A stretch of 64,000 nucleotides of DNA from Chiloscyllium plagiosum (Eukaryota): positions 6,229,933 to 6,293,932 of the forward strand of contig NC_057749.1 in assembly GCF_004010195.1 (NCBI RefSeq). The letters run 5' to 3'. This document shows, in pieces, positions 4,172-63,310 of the stretch; positions within the stretch are counted from its first letter, which is position 1, and each line of letters opens with the position of its first letter. Position numbers and translations under genes: made by a program. The notes under the pieces were generated by a model. It ran no database searches. It saw only the letters and a program-made list of their open reading frames with translations, and had not been told where the DNA came from.

Positions 4172-5809
4172 GATTTGGGGATGCTGGTGTTGGACTGGGG
4201 TGTACAAAGTTAAAAATCACACAACACCAGGTTATAGTCCAACAGATTTAATTGGAAGCACACGAACTTTCGGACAGATGCTCCTTCATCAGGTGATAGT
4301 GGAGGGCTCAATCCTAACACAGAATTTATAGCAAAAATTTACAGTGTGATGTAACTGAAATTATACATTGAAAAATTGATTGTCTGTTAAGCCTTTCATC
4401 TGTTAGAATACAGTGATAGTTTCACTTCTTTNNNNNNNNNNNNNNNNNNNNNNNNNNNNNNNNNNNNNNNNNNNNNNNNNNNNNNNNNNNNNNNNNNNNN
4501 NNNNNNNNNNNNNNNNNNNNNNNNNNNNNNNNNNNNNNNNNNNNNNNNNNNNNNNNNNNNNNNNNNNNNNNNNNNNNNNNNNNNNNNNNNNNNNNNNNNN
4601 NNNNNNNNNNNNNNNNNNNNNNNNNNNNNNNNNNNNNNNNNNNNNNNNNNNNNNNNNNNNNNNNNNNNNNNNNNNNNNNNNNNNNNNNNNNNNNNNNNNN
4701 NNNNNNNNNNNNNNNNNNNNNNNNNNNNNNNNNNNNNNNNNNNNNNNNNNNNNNNNNNNNNNNNNNNNNNNNNNNNNNNNNNNNNNNNNNNNNNNNNNNN
4801 NNNNNNNNNNNNNNNNNNNNNNNNNNNNNNNNNNNNNNNNNNNNNNNNNNNNNNNNNNNNNNNNNNNNNNNNNNNNNNNNNNNNNNNNNNNNNNNNNNAC
4901 GGAGTTTTACATAAATTCATGCAGTTTTTGAGCTCAGAGTTCTACATGAATGCATGCAGTTTTTGAGCAAAGTACAATGTAATCCTGCAAGTACAAATTC
5001 ACCCCACAAAATATATGTGTGCATGTGGGTCTTTGTCTGTCTGTGTGTGTCTGTCTGGGTTGGGGGTTGTGAGTGTGAGAAACTGTATGTGTGTGTGTAG
5101 TGAGTGCAGAGTGTCTTAAGTCTGTGAGAGGGGGTGCATGTGTGAGTGTGGGAGTGTGTGTGTCTGTAAGGGTGCAGACACACACACTCCCACACTCACA
5201 CATGCACCCCCTCTCACAGACTTAAGACACTCTGCACTCACTACACACACACATACAGTTTCTCACACTCACAACTCCCAACCCAGACAGACACACACAC
5301 ACACAGACAGACAAAGACCCAAATGCACACATATATTCTGTGGGGTGAATTTGTGTACTTTGCTCAAAAACTGCATGCATTCATGTAGAACTCTGAGCCC
5401 AAAAACTGTATGAATTTATGTAAAACTCCGTTATCTCACTTTTTAGATTAGAATCAATCTAAACATCATGGCATAGACAGAGAACACAGGGGGCCTACAC
5501 CTTCAATATATTGTCTAGCTATCACCATTGTTAACAGCTAACCCGAGAATGCAACTTTTAAAAAAAAGGTCTTGTGATTTACACATGAAAGAAGTGAAAC
5601 TATCCCTGTATTCTAACAGATGAAAGGCTTAACAGACAATCAATTTTTCAATGTATAATTTCAGTTACATCACACTGTAAATTTTTGCTATAAATTCTGT
5701 GTTAGGATTGAGCCCTCCACTATCACCTGATGAAGGAGCGTCGCTCCAAAAGCTAGTGTGCTTCCAATTAAATCTGTTGAACTATAACCTGGTGTTGTGT
5801 GATTTTTAA
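4172..5809. mobile_element. Non-autonomous Penelope-like element inserted as a fold-back palindrome
   Basis: Arms ~4209-5166 and 5175-5810 are reverse complements around an 8-nt loop; hammerhead core in each arm; 13-bp TSD ctttattttctat (4159-4171, 5810-5822). Confidence 0.75.
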
Positions 5810-6350
5810 CTTTATTTTCTATAAAGATGTAAGAAATAGAAGTAGCCTATTGAGCCTCTTAAACAGTTCATGAGGTCATGGCTGCTCTTCTACTTCAGCT
5901 CCACTTTCTCATCTTATTCCTGTATCCTCAGAAACCATGGGACATAGGCCATTCAGCCCATCGAGTCTGCTCTACCATTCAATGAGATCATGGTAATCCT
6001 CAACAACACTTTTCAGTTTGTTCCCTTGATCCTCAGGCAGAGATTTTCCGTCCTAATGTTCAAGAGTGGTATTGAGCATGTTGGGCAGAGTGACATATCC
6101 GCCATCACCCTGGGCAAGTTGTCGTAATATGGTCATGTGCTTCCCAGTTCATTATCAAGACAAGCAAGATGTTAAATTTCACCACATTTCAGTCCTAAAT
6201 GATGGTCCTTTAATTTGACATCACCTCAATAGCCAGAGGGACCAGCCTCTCAACACCAATCCTGTCAGATCCTCTATACAAAGATACTGGCTATATAAGG
6301 ACTGGATTCTCTCTTTTTACGGCCTCACTACTTTACCCCTCTTTTAATAG

Positions 6351-6500
6351 CTGCATCACTTTGCAACCTGTGATTTGCGTTGGGATGAAAATACATTATA
6401 CCAAAAAGAAATTGCTCAAGTGTACAAAGAAAGAATTTGCTTTTGAATGTGCCAAAACAATTCAGACAATAAATTAAATTTAAATCCCTTTTTTCTCTTT
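6351..6500 (+). other. Candidate terminal exon
   Basis: Long polypyrimidine tract ending in tag at 6350; phase-0 frame LHHFATCDLRWDENTLYQKEIAQVYKERICF*; AATAAA 6468-6473 then a T-rich tract. Confidence 0.2.
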
Positions 6501-6503
6501 TGA

Positions 6504-6721
6504 GGTGCCACAGTGGCTCAGTGGTTAGCTCGCAGCGCCAGGGACCCATGTTCAATCCCAGCCTCAGGTGACTGTCTGTGTGGAGTTTGCACATTCTCGC
6601 CATGTCTGCGTGGGTTTCCTCTGGGTGCTCCAGTTTCCTCCCATAGTGGGTGGATGCTCTTTGAAGGATTGGTGTGGACTCAATGAACTGAATGCCCTGC
6701 TTCCACGTAATAGGGATTCCA
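6504..6721 (+). mobile_element. HE1-type SINE, internally deleted
   Basis: tRNA-like head (gtggctcagtggttagc, gttcaatcc) and V-domain gtgtggagtttgcacattctc. Confidence 0.85.
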
Positions 6722-6734
6722 TCTCATTGACATT

Positions 6735-6992
6735 ATGTCAGCAAATGCAACAGTCGATCTGTGCACAATAAGATCCCATAGCTATAAATATAATTCACTC
6801 CCAAACTGTTTAGTGAAAGACAAATGTTGACTAGAATACTAGATGAACTCTGTTACTTTCCTTTAAACAATACATTGGTTTAACCTCTTACTTTTACAAT
6901 GGGAGATTTTTACATCAATCTGAGCATACAGTTAACACTTCATCCCAAAGATGCCACCTTCTGCAAGGCACCATCTTCCCAGTACTGCATTC
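6735..6992 (-). mobile_element. Old DeuSINE/AmnSINE-like remnant
   Basis: gtgcacaataagatccca ... tttttacatcaatctgag ... cccagtactgca; similar to 62140-62480. Confidence 0.4.
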
Positions 6993-7032
6993 TAACACTA
7001 ATCTAGCCTACATATTTAGGATCTGTAATAGG

Positions 7033-7727: not shown

Positions 7728-8389
7728 CTGTGGAATAAAACAGAGTCATATCCTTTACTTTTGAGGATATATATTGGAATCATTTTTACATAATATACAA
7801 AGTTATGATGGAAACAAATTATGCACAATAATAGAAAAATAATTTGCAGATACAACTTTTCACGTCTCTCTCATCACTTTGATTGACACTTTGTTGAATT
7901 TTTTTTAACTTACTCAGCATTTTGGCCTTCTGCTGAAGTTAGATTCCTTAACCATCTATACCAGAATATGTCAACAAGCAGAGCACTGCAGACACTAGAA
8001 TTCTGAAATATAAACTGAACATTTTGGAAAAGCTCAAAGCACCTATGTTGAAGGAGATTCAGAATCAGTGTTTCATGCCTGTGATGCTTCTTCAGAACTG
8101 GGAAAAGTCAGGCATGGAATCATAGAATCAGACAGTAGAGAAGAGGCCCTTTGGCCCATCCACTCGGATTGTCACTGAAGCACTTCCTCTGTCCATCTGG
8201 GACTTACCTGCCATGCACTGGCAGCATGGGTGGTACTACACCAGCACCTTGAGGTGCCTGCTTCAGAGAGTAGATGTTTCAGAGCCATATAGGAAGGTGG
8301 GAACACCACAGGTCTGTATACCATGATCCCAAGCCCGACATCTTTTCTATATATGTACCAGGATCCCTTTTGCTGTTGGCTCTGCTTTT

Positions 8390-8845
8390 ACCACCCTTCC
8401 CACTCCAATTCCAACATGACCATCCTTGGACTCCTTCATTGCCAAAACAAATCAAACTGCAAATTGGAAGAACAACACCTCATCTTTTGTCTGGGCAGTC
8501 TGCAGCCCGGAGAACTCAACATTGAGTTCTCCAATTTCAAATAACCTCCCTTCCTATCTTCCGTCTCCTTTCCCAGCCCCACCCCCTCCCTCCCATTCCT
8601 CTCATCGATCCTTCTCTCCAGGCATCCAATCCCAGATTCATTCCACCCATCAAGCAATCAGGTCGTACCCTCTACCTGTGTTCACTTATCCCCATCTAAC
8701 CACCCTTTTCTCCTCCAACCCCCTTTATCTGCAGCTCCACTTACACCCACCCCCAGCCCTGAAGAAGGGTTATACCTGAAACTTTGATTTCCCCACCTCC
8801 TGATGCTGCCTGGCTTGCTCTGTTCTTCCAGCCTCCTGTGTGTTT
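8390..8845 (+). mobile_element. Penelope-like element 3' end with terminal repeat
   Basis: Peptide KLEEQHLIFCLGSLQPGELNIEFSNF typical of PLE C-termini; hammerhead core 8759-8782. Confidence 0.8.
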
Positions 8846-10524: not shown

Positions 10525-10529
10525 ATGTC

Positions 10530-11657: not shown

Positions 11658-11659
11658 TC

Positions 11660-12195
11660 AGCACACAAATCCACAGCCACAGTATGCCAATACTCATCAG
11701 AATGAAAGACCCCATACCCATAACATGCAGCTGCCACGTGATATATAAAATTCCATGTAACGACCAGCACAAACATTACATTGGCCAGACTGGAAGAAAA
11801 CTAGCAACCCGGATACACAAACACCAACCAGCAGCAAAATGGCATGACCAGCTCTTCCCCATTTCAGTACACGCAGATAAAGAGAACCATCAATTTGACT
11901 GGACAACATAACCATCCTAAGACACGCTAAGCAGAGACATGCATGGGAATTTGTAGATGCCTGGTTTTCATCCGTGATGCCATCTACAAGCATGTTGACA
12001 TAGACCCCATATACAAACCACTACAAAGGAAAGCCGGTAGAGCTAAGACCCACCTTAACAGACCGAGGCGTCTCGATATCAAGTGGAGTAGAAGAACAAT
12101 ATTTCACAGGAGTCGCACTGATGATATTGCCTAGCACAGTGGCAAAACATTTGCATGACAACCCATCATATCAGTGAACTAAACTCCAATCACAT
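11660..12195 (+). mobile_element. Penelope-like element fragment with GIY-YIG endonuclease remnant
   Basis: VIYKIPCNDQHKHYIGQTGRKLATRIHKH (11684-11911); decayed hammerhead 12118-12148. Confidence 0.88.
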
Positions 12196-13140: not shown

Positions 13141-13571
13141 CGTTATGAACCAGGCCAGACACCTTCAATACATTTCAAGAAGGTAGCCCAGACGTAACCT
13201 TTTCTAGTTGTTTTAAGCAAGGGTAATGTGGATATTCCAGGGGTAATGTGGATATTCCAGGGTTAAAGTGGATATTCCAGGGGTAATGTGGATATTCCAG
13301 GGTTAATGTGGATATTCCAGGGGTAATGTGGATATTCCAGGGTTAATGCAGCTGGACCAACCACTCAGTTTTAAACAAATTTATTTATACATAAGCAAAG
13401 GAAAACCAAACTTAGAGCGACATAACTATTTGAACACCCAATCGACTCTATCGAAACTTAATGATACTGTTCCAAATAATTGCAACATCTCATAAACACT
13501 CTCTTTGTTAAAAAGGTAAAATCAAACCCAGCTTCTTATGAGAGAGATGTCAGAGAGAAGAGAGGATCAGC
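13141..13571 (-). mobile_element. LTR-like repeat fragment
   Basis: Starts gttatgaaccaggccagacacc, reverse complement of the end of 50785-51346; strand given relative to that copy. Confidence 0.5.
13221..13348. repeat. 20-bp minisatellite, ~6.4 copies of ggKtaatgtggatattccag
   Basis: Directly visible head-to-tail copies without spacers. Confidence 0.97.
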
Positions 13572-14660
13572 ATGAAGGGGAAATCATGCTTGACTAATCT
13601 TCTTGAATTTTTTGAGGAGGTAACTCTGAAGATGGACAAGGGAGATCCAATAGATGTAGTGTACCTGGACTTTCAGAAAGCTTTTGATAAAGTCCCACAC
13701 AGGAGGTTAGTGAGTAAAATTAGGGCGCATGGTATTGGGGGCAAAGTACTAGATTGGATTGAAAATTGNNNNNNNNNNNNNNNNNNNNNNNNNNNNNNNN
13801 NNNNNNNNNNNNNNNNNNNNNNNNNNNNNNNNNNNNNNNNNNNNNNNNNNNNNNNNNNNNNNNNNNNNNNNNNNNNNNNNNNNNNNNNNNNNNNNNNNNN
13901 NNNNNNNNNNNNNNNNNNNNNNNNNNNNNNNNNNNNNNNNNNNNNNNNNNNNNNNNNNNNNNNNNNNNNNNNNNNNNNNNNNNNNNNNNNNNNNNNNNNN
14001 NNNNNNNNNNNNNNNNNNNNNNNNNNNNNNNNNNNNNNNNNNNNNNNNNNNNNNNNNNNNNNNNNNNNNNNNNNNNNNNNNNNNNNNNNNNNNNNNNNNN
14101 NNNNNNNNNNNNNNNNNNNNNNNNNNNNNNNNNNNNNNNNNNNNNNNNNNNNNNNNNNNNNNNNNNNNNNNNNNNNNNNNNNNNNNNNNNNNNNNNNNNN
14201 NNNNNNNNNNNNNNNNNNNNNNNNNNNNNNNNNNNNNNNNNNNNNNNNNNNNNNNNNNNNNNNNNNNNNNNNNNNNNNNNNNNNNNNNNNNNNNNNNNNN
14301 NNNNNNNNNNNNNGCAGGAAACATGTTTCCGCTGATGGGTGAGTGCCGAACCAGAGGACACAGCTTAAAAGTACGGAGTAGACCATTTAGGACAGAGATG
14401 AGGAGAAAATTCTTCACCCAGAGAGTGGTGGCTGTGTGGAATGCTCTGCCCCAGTGGGCAGTGGAGGCCCAGTCTCTGGATTCATTTAAGAAAGAGTTGG
14501 ATAGAGCTCTCAAAGATAGTGGAATGAAGGGTTATGGAGATAAGCCAGGAAGAGGATACTGATTAGGAATGATCAGCCATGATCATATTGAATGGTGGTG
14601 CAGGCTCGAAGGGCAGAATGGCCTACTCCTGCACCTATTATCTATTGTCTATTGTCTATT
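13572..14660 (+). mobile_element. Young CR1 3' portion spanning an assembly gap
   Basis: KGKSCLTNLLEFFEEVT...VYLDFQKAFDKVPH and FFTQRVVAVWNALP; (ctattgt)n tail. Confidence 0.92.
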
Positions 14661-14811: not shown

Positions 14812-14910
14812 AGTTTCTCCTGCTCCTTGGATGCTGCCTGACCTGCTGCGCTTTTCCAGCAACACATTTTTCAGCTCTGATCTCCAGCATCTGCAGTCCT
14901 CACTTTCTCC
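14812..14910 (+). mobile_element. Penelope-type terminal repeat fragment
   Basis: ggatgctgcctgacctgctgcgcttttccagc...ctgcagtcctcactttctcc. Confidence 0.75.
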
Positions 14911-15220
14911 AAGACAAATAGAGACACACATGAGAATTCTTAGAAGCATGGTATTCCGAATGGAACTTGACATGGACCCCATTTACCACCCTCTGTGAGA
15001 AAGAACAGGAAATGTTATCACCACAGGAAATGACATCACCAACCCAAGGAAACCCAAACACATAAATAGAAAGCAGAACATAACACCAGTGTTTCACTGG
15101 AGGCTCACTGAGGATATTACCTCGTATGATGATGAAACAGCTGAAAACTAACCTTCCAGCTCAACGAGCAAACTTACATTCAGAACCTCAACATGAGCTA
15201 CAAACCTTCTCCAAACCCGC
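14911..15220 (+). mobile_element. Penelope-like element 3' end
   Basis: gagaattcttagaagcatgg (EFLEAW), similar to 22058-22380; hammerhead core 15108-15138. Confidence 0.75.
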
Positions 15221-15384: not shown

Positions 15385-15872
15385 GGAGGATGAGGGGTGA
15401 CCTTGTAGAAATTTATAAAAACATGAGGGGCATGGATAAGGCGAATGGCAGTGTCCTTTCCCTCGGGTGGGGGATTTCAAGACCAGGGACATATTTTTAA
15501 GGTGAGAGGAGAAACATTTTAAAAAGACATTTGTAAAGCGGCAATTGCTTTACAGGGAGAGTGGTTCATGTGCAGAATGAACTTCCAGAGGAAGTGGTGA
15601 GTGTGAATACAGTTACAAGCTTTAAAAGACATTTGGAAAAGTGCATGAATAAGAAATGTTTTGAGGGAAATGTCCCAAGCACAGGCAGGTGGCACTAGTT
15701 TAGTTTGAGATTATGGTCAGCACTGACTGTTTGGACTGAAGGGGGTCGAGAGTGTGGTGCTGGAAAAGCACAGCAGGTCAGACAGCATCTGAGGAGCAGG
15801 AGAATCAATGTTTCAGGCATGAGCCCTTCATCAGGAAGGGTCTGTTTCCATGCTGTATAACTCAATGACTCT
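15385..15872 (+). mobile_element. CR1 3' fragment with a nested Penelope-type repeat (15744-15834, minus)
   Basis: gaggggtgaccttgtagaaatttataaa; the nested piece is flanked by a gaaggg duplication. Confidence 0.85.
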
Positions 15873-20488: not shown

Positions 20489-20805
20489 GTAACATAATTA
20501 GAATATATCTGCCTTAGTATACAATTTGAGATTGTTAAATTGTATCGATTTCTGAAACAAAAACCAGGAGTTTGGGGTACATTTGCATTCTATGTAAAAC
20601 ATGGTTTCGGACCTTATTCAGTTTTATCCTGTAAAACTGGGTCAACACCGCGTAACTGCTTCAGGCTTCAACCAGATCAATCTGGCCTACAGAGATATGA
20701 GGGATGATTTGTGAGCTGGAAATTTCTTCTGGGGATTCTGGGAATTCTTCTGGGGATCTGCAGAGTGCCTTGGCAAGTAAAAATAGAGGTGTTGTCTCCC
20801 CAGTG

Positions 20806-20917
20806 CTTATGCCCGAAACGTAGATTCTCCTGTTCCCTGGATGCTGCCTGACCTGCTGCGCTTTTCCAGCAACACATTTTCAGCTCTGATCTCCAGCATC
20901 TGCAGACCTCAATTTCT
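20806..20917 (+). mobile_element. Penelope-type terminal repeat insertion
   Basis: 11-bp TSD tctccccagtg; the empty site is present in the paralogous segment at ~22503-22513. Confidence 0.85.
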
Positions 20918-21121
20918 TCTCCCCAGTGTTTGAATGATAAACTGAAATAGGCCTTTGCAGACTGAGCTACCACTGTGGGGATTAGCCCTTGACTGGATAG
21001 GCCACAGTTACTGCTAAAGTTGTCATCTCTTCAACTCATGAATTTCCCTATTGCTTTTACCCTAGTGATAAACACAGGCTGGCAGAGAACATGAGAGATT
21101 TGATGAAAGGGGTAGGATTTT

Positions 21122-21398: not shown

Positions 21399-21488
21399 TG
21401 TTTTTCTGGTTGGCTTTTGAATCCCACCGTCAGGCTCAAAGTAAGGATTAGAATCGTGTTCGCCTTGTGGTAAACCATCCCTCACCTG

Positions 21489-22380
21489 AAGTGATGGATT
21501 CGCTCACTAAGCTGATGTGCTTTTCTGCAGACATTTTGTCGCCCTCGCTAAGGTAACATCATCAGTGCATGTTCGATAAGGTGTTGGTGGTCTGCCCTGC
21601 CTGGTTTTATGCATCTCTGTTTGTTGGTACTTGCGGTTATGTATCTGCGTGGTTTGTATACAAGGTCCAGTTCAATGCGTCTATTGATGGAGTTAAATAT
21701 CACACAACACCAGGTTATAGTCCAACGGGTTTAATTGGAAACACACTAGCTTTCGGAGCAACGCTACTTCATCAGGTGATAGTCACCTGGTGAAGGAGCG
21801 TCGCTCCGAAAGCTAGTGTGTTTCCAATTAAAACTGTTGGACTATAACCTGGTGTTGTGTGATTTTTAACTTTGTACACCCCAGTCCAACACCAGCATCT
21901 CCAAATCATGACTTCTATTGATGGAGTTCTAGTTGGAGTGCCAGGCCCCAAGGAGCTCTCTGGTGTGTCTCTGTTTTGCCTGTGCTAGGATGGTTACATC
22001 GTCCCAGTTGAATTTGTGTCCTTCGTTGTCTGTGTAGTTGGAAATGAGAGAGTGCTGGATGGCGTAACCATCCTAGCACAGGCAAAACAGAGACACGCCA
22101 GAGAATCTCTTGGTGCCTGGCACTCCAACTGGAACCCCATCAATAGACACATTGAACTGGACCCTATTTACAAACCGCTCAGATACAGAACTGCAAGTAC
22201 CAACAAACAGAGACATATAAATACTAGGCGGGACAGACCACCAACATTTTATCGAACACACACTGATGATGTCACCTAGCGAGGCGACAAAACGTTTCCA
22301 GAAAAACACACCGGCTCGGCGAACGAATCCATTACTTCATCCACACCCAAGCTACAAATCTTCCACGAACTCTAAACACA
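21489..22380. mobile_element. Inverted pair of Penelope-like 3' ends with a nested fold-back element (21695-21913)
   Basis: TILAQAKQRHARESLGAWHSNWNPINRHIELDPIYKPLR on plus with a mirror copy on minus; TSD cctcacctg. Confidence 0.85.
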
Positions 22381-22689
22381 CCTCACCTGCGATTTTCCCT
22401 GAACTGGCCAGAGGTCAGGCTAGCTATACAGAAAGACTACGGGTGGCTTTCCAGCCTCAAAGCAGCTGCAGGGTACCTTGACAAGTGAAAATAGAGGTGT
22501 TGTCTCCCCAGTGTTTGAATGATAAACTGAAATAGGCCTTTGCAGACTGAGCTGCCACTGTGGGGATTAGCCCCTGAGTGGATGGCCCACAGTTACTGCT
22601 GAACTTATCATCTCTTCAATTCATGAAATTCCCTATTGCTTTTACCCTAGTAATGGTTATTGCTATCCTCCTTTTGCCCATTAATTAAT

Positions 22690-23583
22690 CAGTATTTATG
22701 GGATGCTATCAGAGTTTTCTACTGTAAAGTACTTATTCAATTCCTCTGTCATTTCCTAGCATGCCATTATTATTATTATTTCAGCCCCCTTCTCTCAGGA
22801 GCCTATGTTTACTTTAGCCCCTCAGTTTTTATATAATTACAGGAGCTCTTCTTGTCTGTTTTGGTATTACTTACAAGTTTACTCTCGAAGTTTATTTTCT
22901 CTCTTTTCTTTAGTTATCTTTTAGATTAGATTAGATTAGATTAGATTCCATTCCCTAAGTGCGGAAACAGGTCCTTTAGCCCAACAAGTCCATACCGACC
23001 CTTGGAAGAGTAATCCACCCAGTACCATTTCTCTCTGACTAATGCACCGATCACTATGGGTGATTTTTAGCATGGCCAGTTCACCTGACCTGCACATCTT
23101 TGGACTGTGGGAGGAAACCCACGCAGACACGGGGAGAATGTGCAAACTCACAGACAGTTGCCCGAGATGGGAATTGAACCGAGGTCCCTGGTGCTGTGAG
23201 GCAGCAGTGCTAACCACTGAGCCACTGTGCCACTCCATGTTGGTTTTTAAAACCTTCCCCATTCTTTGGCTTGCCATTAATCTTTAACACTGTATGCTTT
23301 GACTTTTGAGTAAATGCTATCCTTAATTCCTTGGCTAAGTATGGCTTCTCCCTATCCTAGAATCCTTCTTTCTGCCTGGGATATACATTTGTTGTGAATC
23401 ATGAAATATTTTCTTAAATATCTTCCATTATTCCTCAATGCCTTTCCTGCAAAACTTTTCTTCCTATCTGCTCCAGTAAACTCTGCCCCCAGTCCTTCAT
23501 AATTGTCCTGATTTAAGCTTCGCACAGTTGTTTCTGACCCAGGTTTTTCACTCTCAAACGGAAAGTTAACAACTATAGACATG
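22690..23583 (-). mobile_element. Old CR1 ORF2 fragment interrupted by an HE1 SINE
   Basis: Degenerate antisense ORF2 linker region (SETTVRSLNQDNYEGLGAEF). Confidence 0.5.
22922..23232 (-). mobile_element. HE1-type SINE
   Basis: (gatta)n tail, V-domain, head. Confidence 0.92.
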
Positions 23584-23964: not shown

Positions 23965-24218
23965 TTATTATCACCCTGCATTTCCCACAGTTAATCCACC
24001 TAGCATGCTCACTCCTGGACAGTACAAGCAATTTAGCATAGCCAATCCATCTAATCTGCACACCTTTGAACTGTGGGAGGAACTGGAGCATTCGGAGGAA
24101 ACCCACGCAGACACGGGGAGAATGCGCAAACTCCACACAGACAGTCACCTAACGATGGAATCAAATGCAGGTCCCTGGTGCTGTGAAGCAGCAGTGCTAA
24201 CCACTGAACCACCATGCC
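23965..24218 (-). mobile_element. HE1-type SINE
   Basis: Antisense head and V-domain. Confidence 0.88.
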
Positions 24219-25401
24219 AGCCATTTGTAACGATAATGTTTAAGGAGCTGGAAATTTTCCTGTTTCTTTGTACTCAAAGGCTGGTGTATCAACAATCTTT
24301 ATTGTCACAGTGGAACAGATGGCAAAGGAAATAGTCCACAGTCCCAACGCTTGAAATCTTCAAGACCTACCCTTAGGTTGTTTCCAATTCAACGTTTACA
24401 TGATGAGGATGATCATCTCCACACCTCATGCCTTGTCTTGCAAGTCCTATCCATGGAATTGCCATCAGTATACAGTTATTTGCCTGTGATGCTGGCACAA
24501 CAATAACAGAGGCAGAAATGGACCTTTCACGTTGCCTGGATGCTGTGTAACCAAGGGTGGCCAATAGAGCAAAGCGTGAAGAGTAAAGTGCCACGAACAG
24601 CAATGAGATAAATCAGAGACAAAAACTGCTGGCGAAACTCAGCAGGTGTGGCAATATCAGTTGAGAGGAAATGCAGAGTTAACGTTTTGAGTCCAGTGAC
24701 CCTTCTTCAGAACTCAAAGAATTAGAGAGCAATATTGTGAAGGAGGAGGCTGTTCAATCCATTCTGCACCTGCTAATTCTTCATTGGAGACTTTTTCCAC
24801 TAGGTCCTGCATTTTTTTTCCCCTTCTTTTATTTCTATATTTGACTTGGAATGCTACTGTGCAGATGTCAACCATTTAATGGCTTCTTGTGGTGCATTGA
24901 TAATGTCCTGAGTTAAGAGATCTGGGTTCAAATCCCATATACAATAACTATATCAGAACAGGCTCATTTAAAAATATCTACTTCCGGCAGTGCTTTCCAA
25001 ATCACAATTCACTCTGGAAATAAAATGGTCATTGGTGTTGCCTGTTGCTCTTTTTCCAATTGCTTTAAACCCTTGCTGTCATCTGTCACTAAACACTTTT
25101 CACCCTTAGTTTATCCAAACTAATCATGGTTTAAGAAAAGTTATCAAATGCTCTTGCTCCATGGAGAGCAAACTCATGCTCTCTACATAACTGAAGTCCC
25201 TCATCCATGGCACCAAACTAATACCAAACTTGGCATCCTCTCCAAGACCTTGGCATTCTTTCAACAGTGTGGTACCTGCAAGTTTCTCTTTTATTTGTTT
25301 CTTGGATGTAGGCATTGCTGGCCAAACCAGAACGTGTTGCCCATTGCTATTTGCCCTTGATCAAAGCACCTTATTCTGCCATTTTAGTTAGGAGGCAAAC
25401 A

Positions 25402-32707: not shown

Positions 32708-32899
32708 GATTTAATAGGACCTCATGACCGAATCGATTTGTGATGGTTTTAGACAAGCTGAAATTGTCATGTGTTACAAACCAGCGGAGGAGGCGTAATC
32801 AGCTCTGCTCTTTTCAACCCCAGCCACCCTCCCTTCTCAGTCAGTCACACAAAACATTTTAACATTTTTAATTAGCATGCAGTAATCATAATTTGATTA

Positions 32900-34990: not shown

Positions 34991-35301
34991 CTGGGAATTT
35001 AGTGCTAAACACTGTACAGAAACAGAAGTTGCTGCAGGAACTCAGCAGGTTTGGCAGCATTGGTGGAGAGAGAGTTAATGTTTCGAGTCCAGCTTCTTCA
35101 GACCTGATAAAACATTATGGTCTGCTTGAGCTCCCCTGGAGAGGGGACTGTTTCTCGTTCAAACACACTCGGTGCCTGAGTGAGGAAGGTGACATTGGAA
35201 ATGGCAGGTGGGGGATTAGAGGGAACAGAGGATGTGCTGGCCCACTGAACACTATCTCCTCCCCCTTGCTGCCAATTGACGTGCTAGTCACTGAAACAAT
35301 C

Positions 35302-40385: not shown

Positions 40386-41613
40386 AATGTTTTTGGTTGT
40401 CATTCATTCATGGAACTTGACACTGGCTAGGTCAACATTTATTGTCCATCTCTAATTGCTTTTGAGAAGGTAGTAAGATCTCACCTTCACTTGAAATGGC
40501 CATTTTCAAAGGGCAATAAGGAGTCAACCATAACATTGCTCGTCTGAAGTCACATGCAGACCTGACTGGGTAAGAGTGGCAGATTTCCTTCCCTGGAGGG
40601 CATTGGTTCACCAATGAGAGTTGTTTTTAATGCCAATCAACCATGTTTGCATGGGTTCCCATCGCTGATCCAATGTCAGATTTCCGTGGAGGAATAAAAC
40701 CTGCAGATGCTGGAAATCTGAAACCAGCACAGAGAATGTTGGAAAAGAGAGAAACAGAGCTAATGTTTCAAATCAGGGATGACCCTTCTTCAGAACTGCC
40801 CCAGTTCCTAACGAAGAAGTCTGTGGAATATTTTGCAGTTGCCTTTGGTGGGACGGCAGTGAGTGGTTGAGGAGAGGTGATTTATTGTAGTAAGTTATAC
40901 ATTTGGCAAGGAGAATTCAATGTCAGCGCTCCTGGAGAAGCTGATTTAGATTTTCAAAACTTGCAGAAATATGACAAGGTCCTCCTTTTTCTCAACCCAG
41001 TCACTCAGTTTCAATGACTTTGCACCTTTTTAAAACATGCATCAAGTCTACTGCCAGGCTCTTTGATGAAGCTGTAATTACCTTGGCAATCATTCCCAAG
41101 TTGTTTTGCTTTATTTTCAAGTCAGCAAGGTTCTCAGTCTTGAGGAATTGCCGCTGTAAAACTGGTAGTGCAGGTAAATCAAGGGGATTTCTGCAAGACA
41201 TCACAAAGCTGTGGGGAACTGTACTCGCCAGTCATAGCACTCACTGATAGATGCATTGTGGGAGGGTCACCTTCCCCTAATTTTGACCAAATACTGAAGA
41301 TGCAAATGAACCCACTGACTTGCATGGCAGAGAATCAGATCAGAATGCAGGGGTACATATTTTCCGTCTGGAAGGCAATAAGGCAGGAAATGACTTTTGT
41401 TGTCACAGCTCGTCTTGTTTTGTTTTTATTTCTTTAGTCAATACAAATCCTCAGCGTTGAGTGATCATCTCATTTGCTGAGCTTACGGTGATTAAACCAT
41501 CACTGAGTCTGTACAGGGGCCTGTCATCTGCAATGTGCAATGTTCTTTCTGTTTCTGCTGAATTGCTGAATTGTACTGAGATCATTGGAATAAGAGTCAA
41601 AATCCAATGTTTG

Positions 41614-50315: not shown

Positions 50316-50444
50316 TCCTGACGAGGGGTTTCAGCCTGAAACATTGACTTTCCTGCTCCTCGGATGCTGGCTGACCTGCCTGTGCTTTTCCAACTCCACA
50401 CATATAGACTCTGGCTTCCAGCATCTGCAGTCCTCACTGTCCCC
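50316..50444 (+). mobile_element. Penelope-type terminal repeat insertion
   Basis: Hammerhead core 50318-50342 then ggatgctggctgacctg...ctgcagtcctcact. Confidence 0.8.
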
Positions 50445-52414: not shown

Positions 52415-55400
52415 TGCAGTGGGAGGAGTGACAGCGAGGACCAGAGGCCCAATGGGAAGGTAGGAGCAGAGTTTAAAAACTTACCTCATGTATAGGCAGA
52501 GTGCACGCTGAGCAAGAGCGGACACAGGACTGCTGGGTAAGTGAAGCTTTATATATGGTTAGTTGCTTTACCTGAAACGCTACTCGGGTAGAGTCTCCTA
52601 CCCATCCTCCTCCTCGAACCGAAACAAATTCTTGCGCTGGATTGATAAGGTGACTAGTCTGTTTTTTTTCCCTCTCTTTTAGTTTTCAGTAGTCTTGGTG
52701 GGAATTTTGAATAGTGGGAATGGAGATTAGAGCAGTTGAATATTCCTCCTGAGGAACGTGGGGTGGCATGGTGGCTTAGTGGTTAGCACTACTGCCTTTC
52801 AGCACCAGGGTCCCAGGTTTGATTCCAGCCTTGGGCGACTGTCTGTGTGGAATTTACACATCCTCCCCGTGTGGGTTGCCTCCAGGTATTCCGGTTTCCT
52901 CCCACATTCCAAAGATGTGCAGACCAGGTGAGCTAGGTGAGACCTCTACAAACAGGATGGTCTTCACCTGAACCAGAGGGGTACCAATGGCCAGGTGAAT
53001 TGGCCATGCTAAATTGTTCATAGTTGTTAGGAGCATTAGTCAGAGGGGGGTGGGTTAGTCTTCGGAGGGTCAATGTGGACTTGTCGGGCCAAAGGGCCTG
53101 TTTCCACACTGCAGGGAACCTGTGTCACAAAGTCTCACCACTAGTGTCCCTGCTGACTGTATCTGTGGGAAGTGCATCCAACTCCAGGTCCTCGAAAACC
53201 ACGTTAGGGAGCTGGAGCTGGATGAATTACAGATCATTCAGGATGTGGAGGCGGTTATTGAGAAGAGTTACAGAGTCACACCTCAGGTAAAAGAAGAAGG
53301 TAGATGGGAGTGCAGGGATCCCCTGTGGCCATTCCCCTCAACAACAAGTATACCATTTTGGATACTTGGGCAACTTACCAGTGGTAAGCAATGGGGCACA
53401 GGTCTCTGGTACTGCTCAGAAGGGAAGGGGGAAGAGGAGCAGAGCATAAGTCATTAGGTATTCCATACTTAGGGGGACAGACAGGAAGTTTTGTGGGAAT
53501 GGGAGGGACTCACGGTTGGTGTGTTGCCTCCAGGTGCCAGGGTTCGTGATGTCTCTGATCGCGTTTTTGGGATCCTTGCTGGGGAGGGAGAGTAGCCCCA
53601 AGTCATGGTCCACATAGGCACCAACAACATAGGGAGGAATAGAGATGGGGACTTAAGGCAGAAATTCAGGGAGCTAGGGTGGAAGCTTAGAGCTAGAACA
53701 AACAGTTGTTATCTCTGGTTTGTTGCTCGTGCCACGTGCTAGTGGGGTGATGAACAGGGAGAGAGAGGAGTTGAACACGTGGCTGCAGAGATGGTGCAGG
53801 AGGGAGGGTTTTGGATTCCTGGATAATTGCGACTCTTTCTGAGCTAGGTGAGACCTCTACAAACAGGATGGTCTTCACCTGAACCAGAGGGGTACCAATA
53901 TCCTGGGGGGGAAATTTGCAAATGCTCTTCAGGTGGGTTTAAACTAATTCAGCAGGGGGATGAGAACCTAAACTGTAGTTTGAGTATAAAGAAGGCTGAG
54001 AGTAGGGAGGTCCGAAATAAGATTTCAGGGTCGCAAGAGGGCACCGGCAAGCAAAAAGTTGGTTTGAAGTGTGTCTGTTTCAATGCCAGGAGCATCTGGA
54101 ATAAGGTGGAGGAATTTGCAGCATGGGTCAGTACCTGGGATTTCGACGTTGTGGCCATTTCAGAGACATAGGTAGAGCAGGCTCAGGAATGATTGTTGCA
54201 TGTTCCAGGATTTAGGTATTGCAGTAGGAACAGAGAAGATGGTAAAAGAGGTAGGGGTATAGCATTGTTAGTTAAGGACAGTATTACGGTGGAGAAAGGA
54301 CATTTGAGGACTCATCAATTGAGGTAGTATGGGCTGAGATTAGAAACAGGAAAGGAGAGGCTACCCTGTTGGAAGCTTTCTATAGGCCTCCGAATAGTTC
54401 CAGAGATGTAGAGGATAGGATAGGAAGGATAATTCTGGATAGGAATGAGAATAACATGGTAGTTGTTATGGGGGACTTCAACTTCCTAAATATTGACTGG
54501 GAATACTACAGTTCAAGTACTTCAGATGGGTCAGTTTTTGTCCAATGTGTGCAGGAGGATTTTCTGACACAGTATGTAGACAGGTCAACAAGGGGCAAGG
54601 CCACATTAGAATTGGTATTGGGTAATGAACCTGGCCAGGTGTTAGATTTGGAGGTAGCTGAGCACTTTGGTGATAGTTACCACAATTCAGTTATCTTTAC
54701 TTTAGCGAAGGAAGGGAAAGGTATACATGGAGGGTAAAGCTACAGCTGGGGAAAGGCAATTACAATGCGATTAGACAAGATTTAGGATATATAGGGTGGG
54801 GAAGGAAACTGCAGGGAATGGGCACAATAGAAATGTGGAGTTTATTCAAGGAACAACTACTGTGTGTCTTTGATAAGTTTGTACCGGTCAGATAGGGAGG
54901 AAGTTGTCGAGCACAGGATCCATGGTTTACTAAGAAAGTTGAATTTCTTGTCAAGAGAATGAAGAAGGCTGACGTTAGGATGAGATGTGAAGGCTCAGTT
55001 AGAGCGATTGAGAGTTATAAGGTAGCCAGAAAAAACCTAAAGAGAGAGCTCAGCCGAGCGAGGAGGGGACATGAGACATCATTGGTGGATAGGATCAGGG
55101 AAAACCCTCAGGCCTTCTATGGTATATAAGGGATAAAAGAATGACTAGAGTAAGATTAGGGTCAATCAGGGAGGCAGTAGGAAGTTGTGCGTGGAGTCAA
55201 AGGAGCTAGGGAAAGTTCTAAATGAATATTTTTCATCAGTATTCACACTGGAAAAAGATAATGTTGTCGAGAGAATATTGAGAAACAGGCTATTAGATGA
55301 GATGGGATTGAGGTTCACAAGGAGGAGGTGTTAGAAATTCTGGAAAGTGTGAAAATAGATAAATCCCCTGGGCCAGATGAGATTTATCCTAGGATACTTT

Positions 55401-56880
55401 GGGAAACCAGGGAGGAGATTGCCGAGCCTTTGGCTTTGATTTTTATGTTGTCATTGTCAACAAGAATAGTACCAGAAGACTGGAGGATAGCAAATATTGT
55501 TCCCTTGTTCAAGGAGGGGAGAAGAGATAACCCTGGTAATTATAGACCAGTGAATCTTACATCGGTTGAGGGTAAAGTGTTGGAAAAGGTTAGAAGAGAT
55601 AGGATTTATAATTATCTCGATAGGCATAAGTTGAATAGGGATAGTCAACACGGTTTTGTGGAGGGGAGGTCATGCCTCACAAACCTTATTGAGTTCTTTG
55701 AGAAGGTGACCAAACAGATAGATGAGGGTAAAGCAGTTGATGTGGTTTATATGGATTTCAGTAAAGCATTTGATAAGATTCTCCATGGTATGCTACTGCA
55801 CAAAATACAGAGGAATAGGATTGAGGGTGATTTAGTAGTTTGGATCTGAGAGAAATTGGCTAACTGAAAGAAGACAGAGGGTGGTAGTTAATGGGAAATG
55901 TTCAGCCTGGAGTTCAGTAACTAGTGATGTACCACAAGGATCTGTTTTGTCATTTTTATAAATGACCCAGACGAAGGTGTAAAAGGATGGGTTAGTACAT
56001 TTGTGGGCAACACTAAGGTTGGTAGAGTTGTGGATAGTGCCAAAGGATGTTGTAGGTTACAGAGGTACATAAATATGCTGCAGAGCTAGGCTGAGAGGTG
56101 GCAAATGAATTTTAATGCAGAAAAGTGTGAGGTGATTCACTTTGGAAGGAGGTACAGAAATGCAGAGTACTGGACAAACAGTAAGATTCTTGGTAGTGTA
56201 GATGAGCATAGATGTGCGTAGATCCCTCGAAGCTGCCACCCAGGTTGATAGGGCTGTTAAGAAGGCATACGGGGTGTTAGCTTTTATGAGTAGAGGGATC
56301 GAGTTTCAGAACCATGAGGTCATGCTGCAGCTGTACAGGACTCTGGTGCGGCCGCACTTGGAGTATTGTGTGAAGTTCTGGTCATTGCATAGGAAGGATG
56401 TGGAAGCTTTGGAAATGGTTCAGAGGAGATTTACTAGGATGTAACCTGGTATGGAGAGAAGATCTTATGAGGAAAGGTTGTGGGCATTGAGGCTGTTTTC
56501 ATTACAGAGAAGAAGGTTGAGAGCTGATTTATTTGAGACATATAAGATAATTGGAGGGTTAGATCGGGTGGACAGTGAGACCCTTTTTCCTCGGATGGTG
56601 ATGGCTAGCACGAGGGGGCATAGCTTCAACTTGAGGGGTGATAGATATAGGAGAGGGGTCAGAGGTAGTTTCTTTACTCAGAGAGCAATAAGGCATGGAA
56701 CATACTGCCTGCAACAGTTGTAGACTCGCCAATGTTATGGGCATTTAAATGGTCATTGGATAGGCATATGGATGAGAATGAAATAGTATAGGTTAGATGG
56801 GCTTCAGATTGGTTTCACTGGATGGTGCAACATTGAGGGCCAAAGGGCTATACTGTGCTGTAATGTTCTGTGTTCTATAG
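52415..56880 (+). mobile_element. Near-full-length decayed CR1 LINE (5' UTR, ORF1 zinc-finger/zipper plus SGNH esterase, ORF2 APE plus RT, 3' UTR)
   Basis: ORF1 CICGKC..LENHVRELEL, HIGTNN, DGLHLN; ORF2 NARSI, ISET, YRPPN, MGDFN, NYRPVNLTS, YMDFSKAFD; many stops and frameshifts. Confidence 0.93.
52760..53120 (+). mobile_element. HE1-type SINE inserted in CR1 ORF1
   Basis: Head, V-domain, tail; itself interrupted at 52930-52990. Confidence 0.9.
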
Positions 56881-57915: not shown

Positions 57916-57945
57916 GCTATTCTTTTTTGACGAAGATTATTGATT

Positions 57946-58262
57946 ATTGATTCCCTACAGTTGTGGAGACAGGTCCTTTGGCCCAACAAATCCACACCAA
58001 CCCTCCAAAGAACAACCCACCCAGACACATTCCCCTACATTTACCCCTGACTAATGCACCGAACACTACAGGCAATTTAGCATGGCTAATTCACCTGACC
58101 TGCACATCTTTGAACTGTGGGAGGAAACCGGTGCACCTGGAGGAAACCCACACAGACACTGAGAGAATGTGCAAACTCCACACAGACAGTCATCCAAGGC
58201 TGGAATTGAACCTGGGACCCTGGTGCTGTAAGGCAGCAGTGCTAACCACTGAAAGCGCTACC
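57946..58262 (-). mobile_element. HE1-type SINE
   Basis: Tail, V-domain, head. Confidence 0.9.
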
Positions 58263-60169: not shown

Positions 60170-60620
60170 GAAACTGTGTTGCTGGAAAAGCGCTTCAGGT
60201 CAGGCAGCATCCAAGGAGCAGGAGAATCGACGTTTTGGGCATGAGCCCTTCTTCAGGAATGAGGAAAGGGTGCCAAGCAGGCTAAGAAAAAAGGTAGGGA
60301 GGAGGGACTTGGGGGAGGGGCGTTGGAAATGCGATAGGTGGAAGGAGGTCAAAACCTGCATGTCCTTGGTGGAGTGGGAGGGGGAGTTGAAGTGTTGAGC
60401 CACGCGGTGGTTGGGTTGGTTGGTCCGGATGTCCCAGAGGTGTTCTCTGAAACGTTCCACAAGTAGGTAGCCTGTCTCCCCAATATAGAGGAGGCCACAT
60501 CGGGTGCAGCGGATGCAGTAAATGACGTGTGTGGAGGTGCAGGTGAATTTGTGGCAGATATGGAAGTGTCCCTTGGGGCCTTGGAGGGAAGTAAGGGGGG
60601 AGGTGTGGGCGCAAGTTTTG
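60170..60620 (-). mobile_element. Penelope-like element fragment, internally deleted
   Basis: ERFREHLWDIRTNQPNHRVAQHFNSPSHS; ctatattggggagacagg (YIGETG). Confidence 0.87.
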
Positions 60621-61004
60621 TCACTGGGCCAACATTTATTGCCTATCCCTAATTGCCCAGTCGACAGTGAAGAGTCAACAACATTACACTCTTTATACTT
60701 AATTCTAGCATCTGATTATGGTCCTAATACTTCACGCCCTCTTAACATTATTCTTCCCAACAGTGAGCCATATTTAAGACCATAAGCCAAAATGTTTTGA
60801 GATGTGATGGAATTTATTCTCCCAGAAGAGAGTGAACGTCTGGAATTCTCTATACCAGAGAGTTGTGGAGGTTAAATCACTGAAAGTATTTGAAGAGGAA
60901 GTGATAGATTTTTTCATGTTTCATGGAGTTGACCGCAGGGGTTGAGGCCTGGGTCAGAACACCCAGGATCTTTTTGAATGGCAGGAGGTGATGGCCAAGT
61001 GGTA

Positions 61005-61510
61005 ATGGGGAAGCAATGGCCAAGTGGTATTATCACTGGACCGTTAATCCAGAGACCCATGTTCCAGGGGAACTGGCTTCAAATCTCTGCCACGCCAGAG
61101 GGTAGAATTTGAATTTAATAAATATCTGGAATTAATGAGTCTGATGATGACTATGATTTGTTTGTTGCAGAAAAACCCATCTAGTTCACTAATGTCCCTT
61201 ACAAAAAGAAACTGCCATCCTTACTGGGTCTGCCCTACATGTGACTCCACATTGACAACAATGTGGTAGACTCTTAACTAGGAGAAGGTGAGGACTGCAG
61301 ATGCTGGAGATTAAAGATTCGAATGCTGCTGGAAAAGTACAGCAGGTCAGGCATCATCCAAGGAGGAGGAGAATCAACGTTTCAGGTAGGAACCCTTCAT
61401 CAGAAAAGGACTCCTTCCTGACTCTTAACTACCCTCTGGGCAATTAAGGATAGGCAATAAATGCTGACCTGGCCAGAGACACCCATATCCTGTAAATGAA
61501 TAATAATAAA
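61005..61510 (+). mobile_element. Second tRNA-derived SINE with a nested Penelope-type repeat (61281-61419, minus)
   Basis: 12-bp TSD gactcttaacta at 61269-61280 and 61420-61431. Confidence 0.85.
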
Positions 61511-61581
61511 AACAGACCACCTTGAGGGGCTGAATGGCCTCCTCCTGCTTTATGATAGTTCACAATATGTTTCTGCGTCAG

Positions 61582-61789
61582 GAGACTTGATGATTATCTT
61601 GGAATTGAAACAGAAGGTGTATTGCTGACCCATGCTGACCTAGCAGGGCTGAATCAGATGGCAGCTGGTGACAGGCAAAGAGCCTTGAAGAATTCTGTCT
61701 CTGATACACGGCTGTCAATGGGGAGCAATACAAATTTCAAGAATGAGTCCATTCAATTGCTCGATGTCGTTAACAAACGCTCTAATTAG
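61582..61789 (+). CDS. Candidate terminal coding exon of an unknown protein
   Basis: Acceptor tgtttctgcgtcag, 68 open codons RLDDYLGIETEGVLLTHADLAGLNQM...KRSN*. Confidence 0.25.
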
Positions 61790-62139
61790 TGGTTGAAAAA
61801 ATGAAGACTCTGTTCAACAATCAGCAAAAATAATAACAAAAGACTCAGCCGTTCTGAGGAGATCAAGGTGGTGTTTACTGCACATGTGTGAGCTTGTTAC
61901 TTTTCCAATCAGGCATGAACTGTAACTCTTATGGAGAGAAGGCTCCAAGCTCTTTCCATTAATGTCAGCTGGTTTAAAAAAAAATTACTCTTCAAAGCAA
62001 ATCACATCTCCATTATCCAGGCTTCATTACTCAGCTTGTTCCTCTCTGAATGCCTTCTGATTTACCACAGAGCGACATGTGCAGTCTGACAGCAATAAAC
62101 CAGGAGCTGCACCCAGGAGACAGTCATATATATACTCAA

Positions 62140-62480
62140 GAAGGACGTGCATTTATATAGAATCGTTCACAACCACGGCAAAGGAAAATTTCTTTCCGAC
62201 TTTAGTTGCTGGTGCAGTGTAGGAAGGACAGCAGTCAATTTGCGCACAGCAAGCTTCCGCAAACCACACTCTGATGGTGATCAGATTATCTCTGCTGATG
62301 ACTGAAGGTTAAATATTGGCCAGACACCACACATAAGTACTATACAACTCTGCAAAAGTTTGTCATAGGATCCATCAGAAAGCCCTCAGCATAATCTCAT
62401 GTCTAGAAGATGGCTTTGCTGAGGTGTGGCAGAATCTCTCAGTACTGCAAAGAAGCATCACTGTTGATTGTTCTGGACAG
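62140..62480 (-). mobile_element. Old DeuSINE/AmnSINE-like remnant
   Basis: gcatttatatag, aatttgcgcacagcaag, aaatattggccagacacc, ctcagtactgca. Confidence 0.5.
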
Positions 62481-62499
62481 ATGAATTCAACTCCTGACC

Positions 62500-63310
62500 A
62501 ATTTAAAGGATCCCATACCCACAGCCAGCAGAACAAACGTAACATACAAAAGACCCTGCAAGGACTGCAACAAACATTACATTGGACAAACCAGCAGGAA
62601 TATGTAAGCACCAATTAGCCACTGGTGGTCGCTGGGAATTTGTTTCCCTAGTTGAGGAGACTAGGGCCCGTGGGCACAGCCTTAGAATTAGGGGTGGTCA
62701 ATTTAGAACGGAAATGAGGAGACATTTCTTCAGCCAGAGAGTGGTGGGCCTGTGGGATTCATTACCATGGAATACAGTGGAGGCCAGGACATTATATGTC
62801 TTCAAGGCAGAGATTGATAAATTCTTGATCTCGCAAGGAATTAAGGGATATGGGAAGAGTGCGGGTAAGTGGCGTTGAAATGTCCATCAACCATGATTGA
62901 TTGGCGGAGTGGACTCGATGGGCCGAATGGCCTCACTTCCACTCTATGTCTTATGGTCTTATGACCAACTATCACTAATATCCATACACACAGACGCAGA
63001 GGGACATCAGCTTGACAGGGACAACATATCCATCCTGGGATCAGCCAAACAAAGACACTCACTGGAATTCCGGCAGGCCTGGCATTCAAACTGGAACTCC
63101 ATCAATAAATACATCGATTTGGACCCCATTTGCCAATCTCTCAGATCCAGAACCAGAAATGATACCACCCACCAAAACAGACCAAGACACATAAATTGCC
63201 AGCGGTACAAAATGCTAGCGCTTCACGAGAGACTCGCTGATGATGTTAGCTAGTATGGTGATGCAACGTCTGAAAACAAACCCATCATCAGCAAGCAGAC
63301 AACCTGCTAA
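62500..63310 (+). mobile_element. Penelope-like GIY-YIG remnant interrupted by a CR1 3' fragment (62630-62965)
   Basis: cattacattggacaaacc (HYIGQT), then ILGSAKQRHSLEFRQAWHSNWNSINKYIDLDP; CR1 piece FFSQRVVGLWDSLP. Confidence 0.85.

Follow-up and report, generated by a model that had tools for sequence, protein, structure and literature searches.

Minimal hammerhead motifs of Penelope-like elements, probably insertion relics, in a 64-kb stretch of the Chiloscyllium plagiosum genome

The stretch analyzed here, 64,000 nucleotides of Chiloscyllium plagiosum contig NC_057749.1 (assembly GCF_004010195.1, forward-strand positions 6,229,933 to 6,293,932; called the window below), contains 20 copies of a minimal hammerhead ribozyme (min-HHR) motif that we attribute to Penelope-like elements (PLEs). 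A preliminary description of this DNA had listed about 19 sites in three families. All 19 coordinates carry the motif once each is read on its proper strand, and the observation of hammerhead motifs in the window is confirmed; one further copy, near 35076-35100(-), brings the total to 20. The number of families is four rather than three, since the sites at 8071, 24684 and 40766, taken at first for decayed copies of the others, form a family of their own (D), while the fourth site described as decayed, 60232, is indeed a family A copy. The family B strings were all present, with the strands corrected here to plus for 5727 and 21787 and minus for 4268 and 21751, and the family C site at 21530 must likewise be moved to the minus strand. 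To delimit the families, the window was compared by BLAST with itself and with 91 loci from the same 3.56-Gb genome. This yielded 79 motif-covering copies of family A, 53 of family B and 40 of family C, and membership was assigned by repeat homology, not by pairing.

Copies were scored with a descriptor modeled on the published motif, which requires a helix I of at least 2 bp, CUGANGA, zero or one unpaired base, a helix II of at least 4 bp, GAAA, a 15.2-16.2 pair, U16.1, and an H17 that is not G. Violations were counted in a relaxed form of this descriptor; the strict form asks for a Watson-Crick G10.1-C11.1 pair and zero mismatches. Downstream of the motif, units of families A, B and C finish at either a short-form or a long-form 3' end, which differ by an extension of 34 to 38 nt present at one end only. 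The family A and D features of the window, together with the reading frames that accompany family A, are as follows.

29886 to 29913, minus strand: family A min-HHR (C3 to H17) with one violation, C15.2.A16.2 after CpG loss; its unit reaches the long-form 3' end at 29789
30224 to 30901, minus strand: remnant of a PLE linker and GIY-YIG endonuclease frame (P0003), upstream of the family A copy at 29913
34515 to 34542, minus strand: family A min-HHR with three violations, in a long copy with a short-form 3' end and an endonuclease-like stretch upstream
15807 to 15834, minus strand: family A min-HHR with one violation; homology begins a few bases upstream of the motif
61281 to 61419, minus strand: short family A insertion with the motif at 61376-61403, starting 16 nt upstream of C3 and flanked by a 12-bp target-site duplication, TAGTTAAGAGTC; empty sites at about 35590 and about 43340
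60229 to 60256, minus strand: family A min-HHR in which G12 has become A; the GIY-YIG frame lies immediately upstream
60203 to 60715, minus strand: open frame in which Pfam identifies a GIY-YIG domain (PF01541, E 2.6e-5; 24.9 bits, cut-off 22.6)
8759 to 8785, plus strand: family A min-HHR with two violations
50318 to 50345, plus strand: family A min-HHR with one violation and a long-form tail
20802 to 20921, plus strand: family A copy 5'-truncated within loop II, with target-site duplication TCCCCAGTG and an empty site at 22448-22590
14815 to 14910, plus strand: family A tail only, starting near the predicted cut site
24681 to 24710, minus strand: family D min-HHR in which G12 has become A, with a helix I of 5 bp
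40762 to 40793, minus strand: family D-like min-HHR with one violation
8071 to 8100, minus strand: strongly decayed D-like copy with more than three violations
about 35076 to 35100 (approximate coordinates), minus strand: extra D-type copy with helix II partly deleted, absent from the earlier list

The two tails at 20802-20921(+) and 14815-14910(+), in which the motif is partly or wholly missing, are additional to the listed sites. The copy at 61376-61403(-) is the only one with zero violations, but it has G.U at 10.1-11.1, and one of the 2 bp of its helix I is U.G. We considered the copies at 60256 and 61403 as the two pseudo-long terminal repeats (pLTRs) of one element and rejected the pairing, as the latter has its own target-site duplication inside another repeat.

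The simple string CTGATGA-N8-30-GAAA occurs 12 times in the window against 1.94 expected, a count reached by none of 100 shuffles, although only 6 of the 12 are family members. With the relaxed descriptor, the window gave 1, 10, 4 and 14 matches at 0, 1, 2 and 3 violations, and the reversed (not complemented) window gave 0, 0, 1 and 7, that is, 15 matches against 1 with up to two violations. The three-violation tier, to which the copies at 12118, 22263 and 34542 belong, is mostly noise, given its 14 matches against 7 in reverse. About 14 copies can be identified by the descriptor alone; these three were recognized only through family homology, as were the copies at 4268 and 8071, both with more than three violations. 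Over 334 kb (the window plus 88 loci), 119 matches with up to two violations compare with 4 in the reversed sequence. The window held 0.23 such matches per kb and non-targeted locus flanks held 0.19, so the window appears typical of the sampled genome, with the proviso that flanks near PLE copies are possibly enriched. Under the strict descriptor, the window, its reverse and the 100 shuffles all gave zero matches. A covariance model (R1) made from 11 copies of family B returned significant E-values only for four B copies and gave the A copy at 29913 just 7.8 bits (E 6.8); it was too family-specific, and an RNAmotif-style descriptor was therefore used instead. A cross-family MAFFT alignment misaligned the cores and was not used.

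Could the motifs be chance matches in the tails of ordinary short or long interspersed elements (SINEs or LINEs), with no connection to ribozymes? The motif is short and the Rfam search was negative, as such an origin would predict. However, the 119 matches against 4 just mentioned, the zero returned by the backward-read control for every whole-genome pattern, and the fact that four sequence-unrelated families have the core, the bulge, the G-C opening pair, the palindrome and the position in common leave this explanation with a negligible probability.

The anatomy is the same in all four families. The family consensuses and intact genomic copies have CUGANGA and GAAA as cores, arranged in type-I order, and then U16.1 and H17. 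Family A has CUGA(U/A)GA, an unpaired A, helix II strands GGGC/GCCC around a 4-nt loop, GAAA and CGUC; family B has CUGAUGA, A, GGAGC/GCUCC around a 3-nt loop, GAAA and GCUA; family C has CUGA(U/A)GA, U, GU(C/U)ACC/GG(C/U)GAC around a 6-nt loop, GAAA and CGU(U/C), and family D has CUGA(G/A)GA, A, GGGUC/GACCC around a 4-nt loop, GAAA and CGUU. Helix II thus varies among families and still pairs, just as had been noticed at the outset. A single unpaired base follows A9 in 117 of the 119 matches with up to two violations and in all 32 intact matches under a stricter descriptor; at this position, between A9 and G10.1, families A, B and D have A and family C has U (C in one subfamily). The pair G10.1-C11.1 opens helix II in the four consensuses, and G.U at this position is frequent after CpG loss (10 of 79 family A copies and 10 of 53 family B copies). 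Helix III is, as had been proposed, a loopless palindrome followed by an NUH triplet, with ACGU at 15.2-16.2 in A, C and D and AGCU in B. The helix I of about 3 bp attributed to the motifs holds for B (3 bp) and C (3 to 4 bp) and not for A (2 bp) or D (4 to 5 bp). Within family C, the copies at 21530 and 22263 belong to a gca/ugc subfamily with GUU, and those at 12118, 15108 and 63237 to a tca/tga or tcg/tga subfamily with GUC; the consensus reconstructed earlier for this family is matched by intact genomic copies.

Covariation of the stems was found at one level only. Between the A to D consensuses, 30 of 32 helix positions pair, with three to four pair types at six of eight positions (binomial P of 3e-11 at a chance pairing rate of 0.375, a value that overstates the case because the families were noticed through pairing). 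Within families, broken pairs predominate and there was no compensatory excess over shuffles. The absence of covariation across genomic copies, named in advance as a result that would tell against the idea, is therefore literally what is seen within families, and the opposite is seen between them. The tails of families D and A have a stretch in common (GCTGCC..ACCTGCTG..CCAGCA; in the window at 24600-24730(-) and 35000-35130(-)), although their hammerhead helices differ, which suggests kinship between the A and D lineages of PLEs.

The connection with PLEs is most direct for family A. The frame at 60203-60715(-) runs into the A motif at 60256 and shows 45% identity over 91 amino acids to the endonuclease end of a 955-amino-acid protein (P0009), which carries the reverse transcriptase (RT) domain RVT_1 at 444-623 and GIY-YIG at 858-893; the alignment places the natural end of the open reading frame (ORF) at about the motif. 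GIY-YIG-type frames also precede many genomic A copies, and a genome search with a 226-amino-acid piece of 30224-30901 returned 124,720 first-look candidates. The Pfam GIY-YIG profile gave only one scored match over the genome, an uninformative outcome. At two of the sampled loci (L093 and L094), an RT-like frame with RYIDD is followed by the linker and then by the endonuclease, and at L094 an A-type motif lies about 300 nt beyond the endonuclease. The RT fragment, to which P0009 is also related, has longer relatives that are uncharacterized proteins of three shark species and carry RVT_1. A PDB sequence search with the fragment gave no matches, and its nearest clusters in the ESM Atlas carry HTH_animal and some of them RVT_1, which we treat as leads only. 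The order of RT and then C-terminal GIY-YIG was found for family A and not for B or C. The reading frame that starts at the AUG inside the CUGAUGA of family A is short and terminates within the tail.

Families B and C are represented in the window by three head-to-head units and three single copies.

4170 to 5813, both strands: family B head-to-head unit whose arms join at a palindrome (5029-5312), with an N gap at 4432-4898; the left arm (-) has its motif at about 4264-4292, with more than three violations, and bears a 36-nt tail extension; the right arm (+) has its motif at 5727-5755, with G12 changed to A, and a short-form end
21691 to 21909, both strands: family B head-to-head unit with motifs at 21747-21775(-) and 21787-21815(+), one violation each
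21487 to 22377, both strands: family C head-to-head unit with motifs at 21530-21565(-), short-form end, and 22263-22296(+), long-form end
12118 to 12151, plus strand: family C min-HHR of the tca/tga-type subfamily with three violations
15108 to 15141, plus strand: family C min-HHR of the tca/tga subfamily with two violations
63237 to 63270, plus strand: family C min-HHR of the tcg/tga subfamily with one violation, GAAA changed to GCAA

In all three head-to-head units the left arm is on the minus strand and the right arm on the plus strand, and each B unit lies within one duplication. A duplication of 7 to 11 bp flanks the unit at 4170-5813. In the smaller B unit, which is nested within the C unit at 21487-22377, the arms are cut off just upstream of the motifs, the plus arm has the extension, and the flanks are TCTATTGATGG. 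The inner junction of these units lies anywhere between 5 nt and about 550 nt upstream of the motif, with fixed outer ends. Family A shows comparable hallmarks, with target-site duplications of 9 to 12 bp at 5'-truncated copies and, elsewhere in the genome, inverted partial copies adjoining main copies. Close pairs of intact B motifs stood in -/+ order in 10 of 11 cases, counted by eye in the first listed stretch of contig 1. At full length B measures about 640 nt and C typically about 490 nt, neither with a detected domain (Pfam on 51 frames upstream of C copies recognized no family), and both families are probably non-autonomous and mobilized in trans. Same-strand arrangements also occur: three same-strand pairs of intact A motifs within 2 kb were seen by eye among the first 100 places listed, and at two loci (L045 and L047) partial B copies 190 to 300 nt apart on the same strand place two to three sense hammerheads in succession, as would be needed for dimeric cleavage or retrozyme-like circles.

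Inverted pairs with short flanking duplications and no reading frame are also what one would expect if B and C were fold-back DNA transposons, or miniature inverted-repeat transposable elements (MITEs), whose inverted repeats contained a hammerhead-like string by chance. We consider this very improbable. The combination of a variable inner junction and fixed outer ends fits 5' truncation and not fixed terminal repeats, many B and C copies are single arms, one arm carries an extension of 34 to 38 nt that is missing from the other, and the distance from motif to end equals that of the endonuclease-encoding family A. As an aside, the junctions of the B units (5029-5312 and 21731-21831) are near-perfect hairpins that reach 48 to 55 bits against plant and animal microRNA models, all below the gathering score, and they constitute a trap for microRNA annotation.

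Measured from the start of stem II, the short-form 3' ends of families A, B and C lie at 71 to 83 nt and the long-form ends at 107 to 119 nt, distances that rest on few window copies. The same spacing in three sequence-unrelated families, equal to the reverse-transcription start site measured in a lizard PLE (an agreement that is purely numerical), argues that the hammerhead is tied to the initiation module and is not a free-standing ribozyme. In the tails of A and B, a segment of the short form can pair with one in the optional extension over an 8- to 9-bp stem (29789-29885(-), 4170-4264(-) and 21815-21909(+)), which would put the short 3' end in the loop and the long end just past the stem; family C tails have no such stem, and the tail folds were no more stable than shuffles (z from -1.0 to +1.2 overall, -0.6 to -1.0 for the A and B stems).

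This geometry also admits other readings. The module might have been kept because its fold docks or positions the PLE ribonucleoprotein (RNP) and sets the distance to the two reverse-transcription starts, with cleavage as a side activity. The conserved spacing agrees with this, and so does the distribution of 5' ends in short family A copies, which cluster 2 to 16 nt upstream of C3; 31 of 95 copies start within 12 nt upstream of C3, versus 3 of 95 at the predicted cut site, although part of the cluster is artefactual, caused by subfamily divergence upstream of position -8. According to the portions available of the papers cited here and below, cleavage by the PLE of the anole needed protein and catalytic mutants had no effect on insertion in vitro (PMC11167929), and PLE clades without hammerheads proliferate well (PMC8557442). 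A mere hairpin, however, needs none of the 11 catalytic core bases, the NUH triplet or the G10.1-C11.1 pair, all of which are kept in the four families (11 of 11 core bases), fungal PLE hammerheads cleave well as monomers (PMC4209133), and anole RNA truncated to +20, without the core, was still inserted (PMC11167929), so the core is not required for docking in that PLE. We therefore regard a pure docking role as unlikely. Equally tentative is the idea that the hammerhead and the two start sites form a fixed-geometry cassette of about 125 nt that is a sufficient cis-signal for mobilization by PLE proteins. If this were so, it would account for A, B, C, D and the anole Poseidon element keeping the spacing and for the spread of frameless B and C with the cassette alone; the excess of 5' ends near the motif would mark the edge of the bound RNP, where the RT stops or switches template to give a head-to-head copy, and the more than 100,000 intact motifs of the genome would amount to a natural mutational scan of the hammerhead-tail module.

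The activity of the copies in the window is another matter. The view that most of them are fossils is upheld, as 0 of 20 meet the strict descriptor. The same count argues against the further proposal of a few possibly active copies, and the sole zero-violation copy has the G.U at 10.1-11.1 already mentioned. The suggestion that the motifs could cut any transcript crossing them finds little encouragement in published work: single min-HHRs were reported without detectable cleavage and dimers with low cleavage (PMC4209133), and the anole PLE hammerhead cleaved only when its protein was there, with no RNA-seq ends at the presumptive site in the available account (PMC11167929). That some window copies are active ribozymes cutting sense host transcripts thus seems very doubtful to us. 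Eleven window copies do have at most one violation, and the A copies at 60256 and 61403 lie on the same strand 1,147 nt apart, but most single violations strike G12, A6 or the 15.2-16.2 pair, in vitro no activity was seen with monomers and little with dimers (PMC4209133), and head-to-head pairs in one transcript would fold into long hairpins.

The genome as a whole is very rich in these motifs. Exact patterns found 87,506 intact A-type, 18,117 intact B-type and 1,093 intact C-type motifs (106,716 for the three combined in 3.56 Gb), and a looser pattern found 1,055 D-type motifs, all with a backward-read control of 0. Fully compliant copies were 15 of 79 in family A, 17 of 53 in B and 1 of 40 in C. 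Identity is low in the columns of loop II and of the CpG sites, C11.1-G12 and C15.2-G16.2. Decay focused on CpG sites, together with the lack of a compensatory excess, indicates that the copies decay neutrally.

Taken together, we assign a probability of about 0.88 to the reading that the motifs are the min-HHRs of a PLE 3' module, spread as target-primed copies, and that the copies in the window are inert relics. The motif anatomy, the PLE frame link for family A, the insertion hallmarks and the neutral, CpG-driven decay are demonstrated; the first three, with the GIY-YIG and RT association of A, bear out the attribution to Penelope-type minimal type-I hammerheads made in the preliminary description, whose interpretation overall is partly supported. 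New insertions would be made by target-primed reverse transcription beginning at one of two sites about 35 nt apart, 71 to 83 or 107 to 119 nt past the point where stem II begins, and mostly stopping early; such early stops would fill the genome with tail-end copies that retain the hammerhead, often head-to-head with a second truncated copy. Family A would be the autonomous PLE lineage with RT and GIY-YIG, B (about 640 nt) and C (about 490 nt) short units that are probably mobilized in trans, being frameless and yet endowed with the same kind of 3' module, and D a further lineage with an A-like tail. In the source elements, published work leads us to infer, the motif may be a weak ribozyme and process PLE RNA only as a dimer or with the protein of the element. 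The element type is an established one and the window adds no new principle, so the novelty is low; as relics, the motifs should be masked as PLE tails and not reported as functional ribozymes or microRNA-like hairpins.

Several results weigh against this reading. Upstream of B and C copies, neither a reading frame nor a Pfam domain turned up, and their PLE status is accordingly argued only from the insertion hallmarks. For family A, open frames around the best 150 endonuclease matches did not exceed 472 amino acids, and no full pLTR-ORF-pLTR unit was seen; Pfam failed to recognize the RT fragment itself, even at E up to 10, and the RT assignment comes for this reason from its homologues. Rfam gave no match at the gathering score in the window, and no hammerhead model at E up to 10, although these models could be expected to miss a motif without intramolecular helix III. 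Within families, both-sided changes that kept a pair did not exceed the shuffle means (7 versus 8.65 in A, 4 versus 3.37 in B and 6 versus 8.47 in C). Nearest-neighbor folding placed the hammerhead fold 3 to 4 kcal/mol above the monomer minimum and made an intermolecular helix III worth only -3 to -4.5 kcal/mol, estimates which suggest that the hammerhead fold is not the favored one. Family A 5' ends are scarce at the predicted cut site (3 of 95), and the locus sample is biased, its central copies having been chosen by similarity to window copies.

The window also holds other repeats. A LINE remnant at 54276-55846(+) contains Exo_endo_phos_2 (AP-type endonuclease, E 1e-9) and RVT_1 (E 2.8e-12), is unrelated to these families, and has inverted partial copies at 976-2395. 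An abundant short repeat is present in 12 copies of an 81-nt core (for example at 23149-23229, 24136-24216, 32628-32708 and 58181-58261) and has ends that look tRNA-derived, but ARAGORN found no tRNA genes in the window. A tandem array of a 20-nt unit in about eight copies (13198-13377) adjoins an N gap at 13769-14313.

Among known systems, non-autonomous hammerhead-bearing PLE derivatives have been described in the single chondrichthyan species that a preprint covered (bioRxiv 10.64898/2026.07.22.740005), and B and C resemble animal non-LTR (long terminal repeat) retrozymes (PMC7229834; bioRxiv 10.64898/2026.07.22.740005) in being short and frameless, with a type-I hammerhead, and related to PLE pLTRs. 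Retrozymes, however, are tandem arrays giving circular RNAs, whereas B and C are dispersed or head-to-head in the window, where no head-to-tail array was seen and the closest same-family, same-strand pair is that of 60256 and 61403, 1,147 nt apart; the partial same-strand tandems of L045 and L047 are the only arrangements that resemble them. The units share with those of endonuclease-positive (EN+) PLEs (Craig et al. 2021, PMC8557442) the heavy 5' truncation, the adjacent inverted 5'-truncated copy, the 30- to 40-bp tail at a single end, the hammerhead near the 3' end and, in family A, the order of RT and then C-terminal GIY-YIG, although complete pLTR-ORF-pLTR units like theirs were not recovered here.

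The closest match in motif anatomy is with the min-HHRs in the pLTRs of metazoan PLEs (Cervera and de la Pena 2014, PMC4209133), whose features beyond the descriptor are the unpaired base after A9, G10.1-C11.1 and the palindromic 15.2-16.2. Our families have the same CUGANGA and GAAA in type-I order, the one unpaired base, the G10.1-C11.1 pair, a palindromic 15.2-16.2 without a helix III loop and a short helix I; both also comprise many sequence families per genome, with copies mostly solitary and truncated and opposite-strand pairs 100 to 700 bp apart. Helix II has 4 to 6 bp here versus 7 to 8 bp in Schistosoma. The more than 100,000 exact intact copies of the three patterns are far above the roughly 9,000 of Xenopus tropicalis and 4,000 of coelacanth, which were counted with a different descriptor, and cartilaginous fish are unnamed among min-HHR hosts in the available part of that paper.

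The Poseidon PLE of Anolis carolinensis (PAc; PMC11167929) likewise has a hammerhead upstream of two internal reverse-transcription start sites. Its ORF begins at stem II, whereas in family A the endonuclease end of the frame precedes the motif; a further difference from PAc is that the extension, AC-rich in B and C, is not so in A. In PAc, reverse transcription starts in a stem-loop 111 to 118 nt from the ORF start, that is, from where stem II begins, and the optional tail is the stretch between the two start sites. This far start at 111 to 118 nt compares with long-form ends at 107 to 119 nt in our families, and the optional tail of 30 to 40 nt with an extension of 34 to 38 nt.

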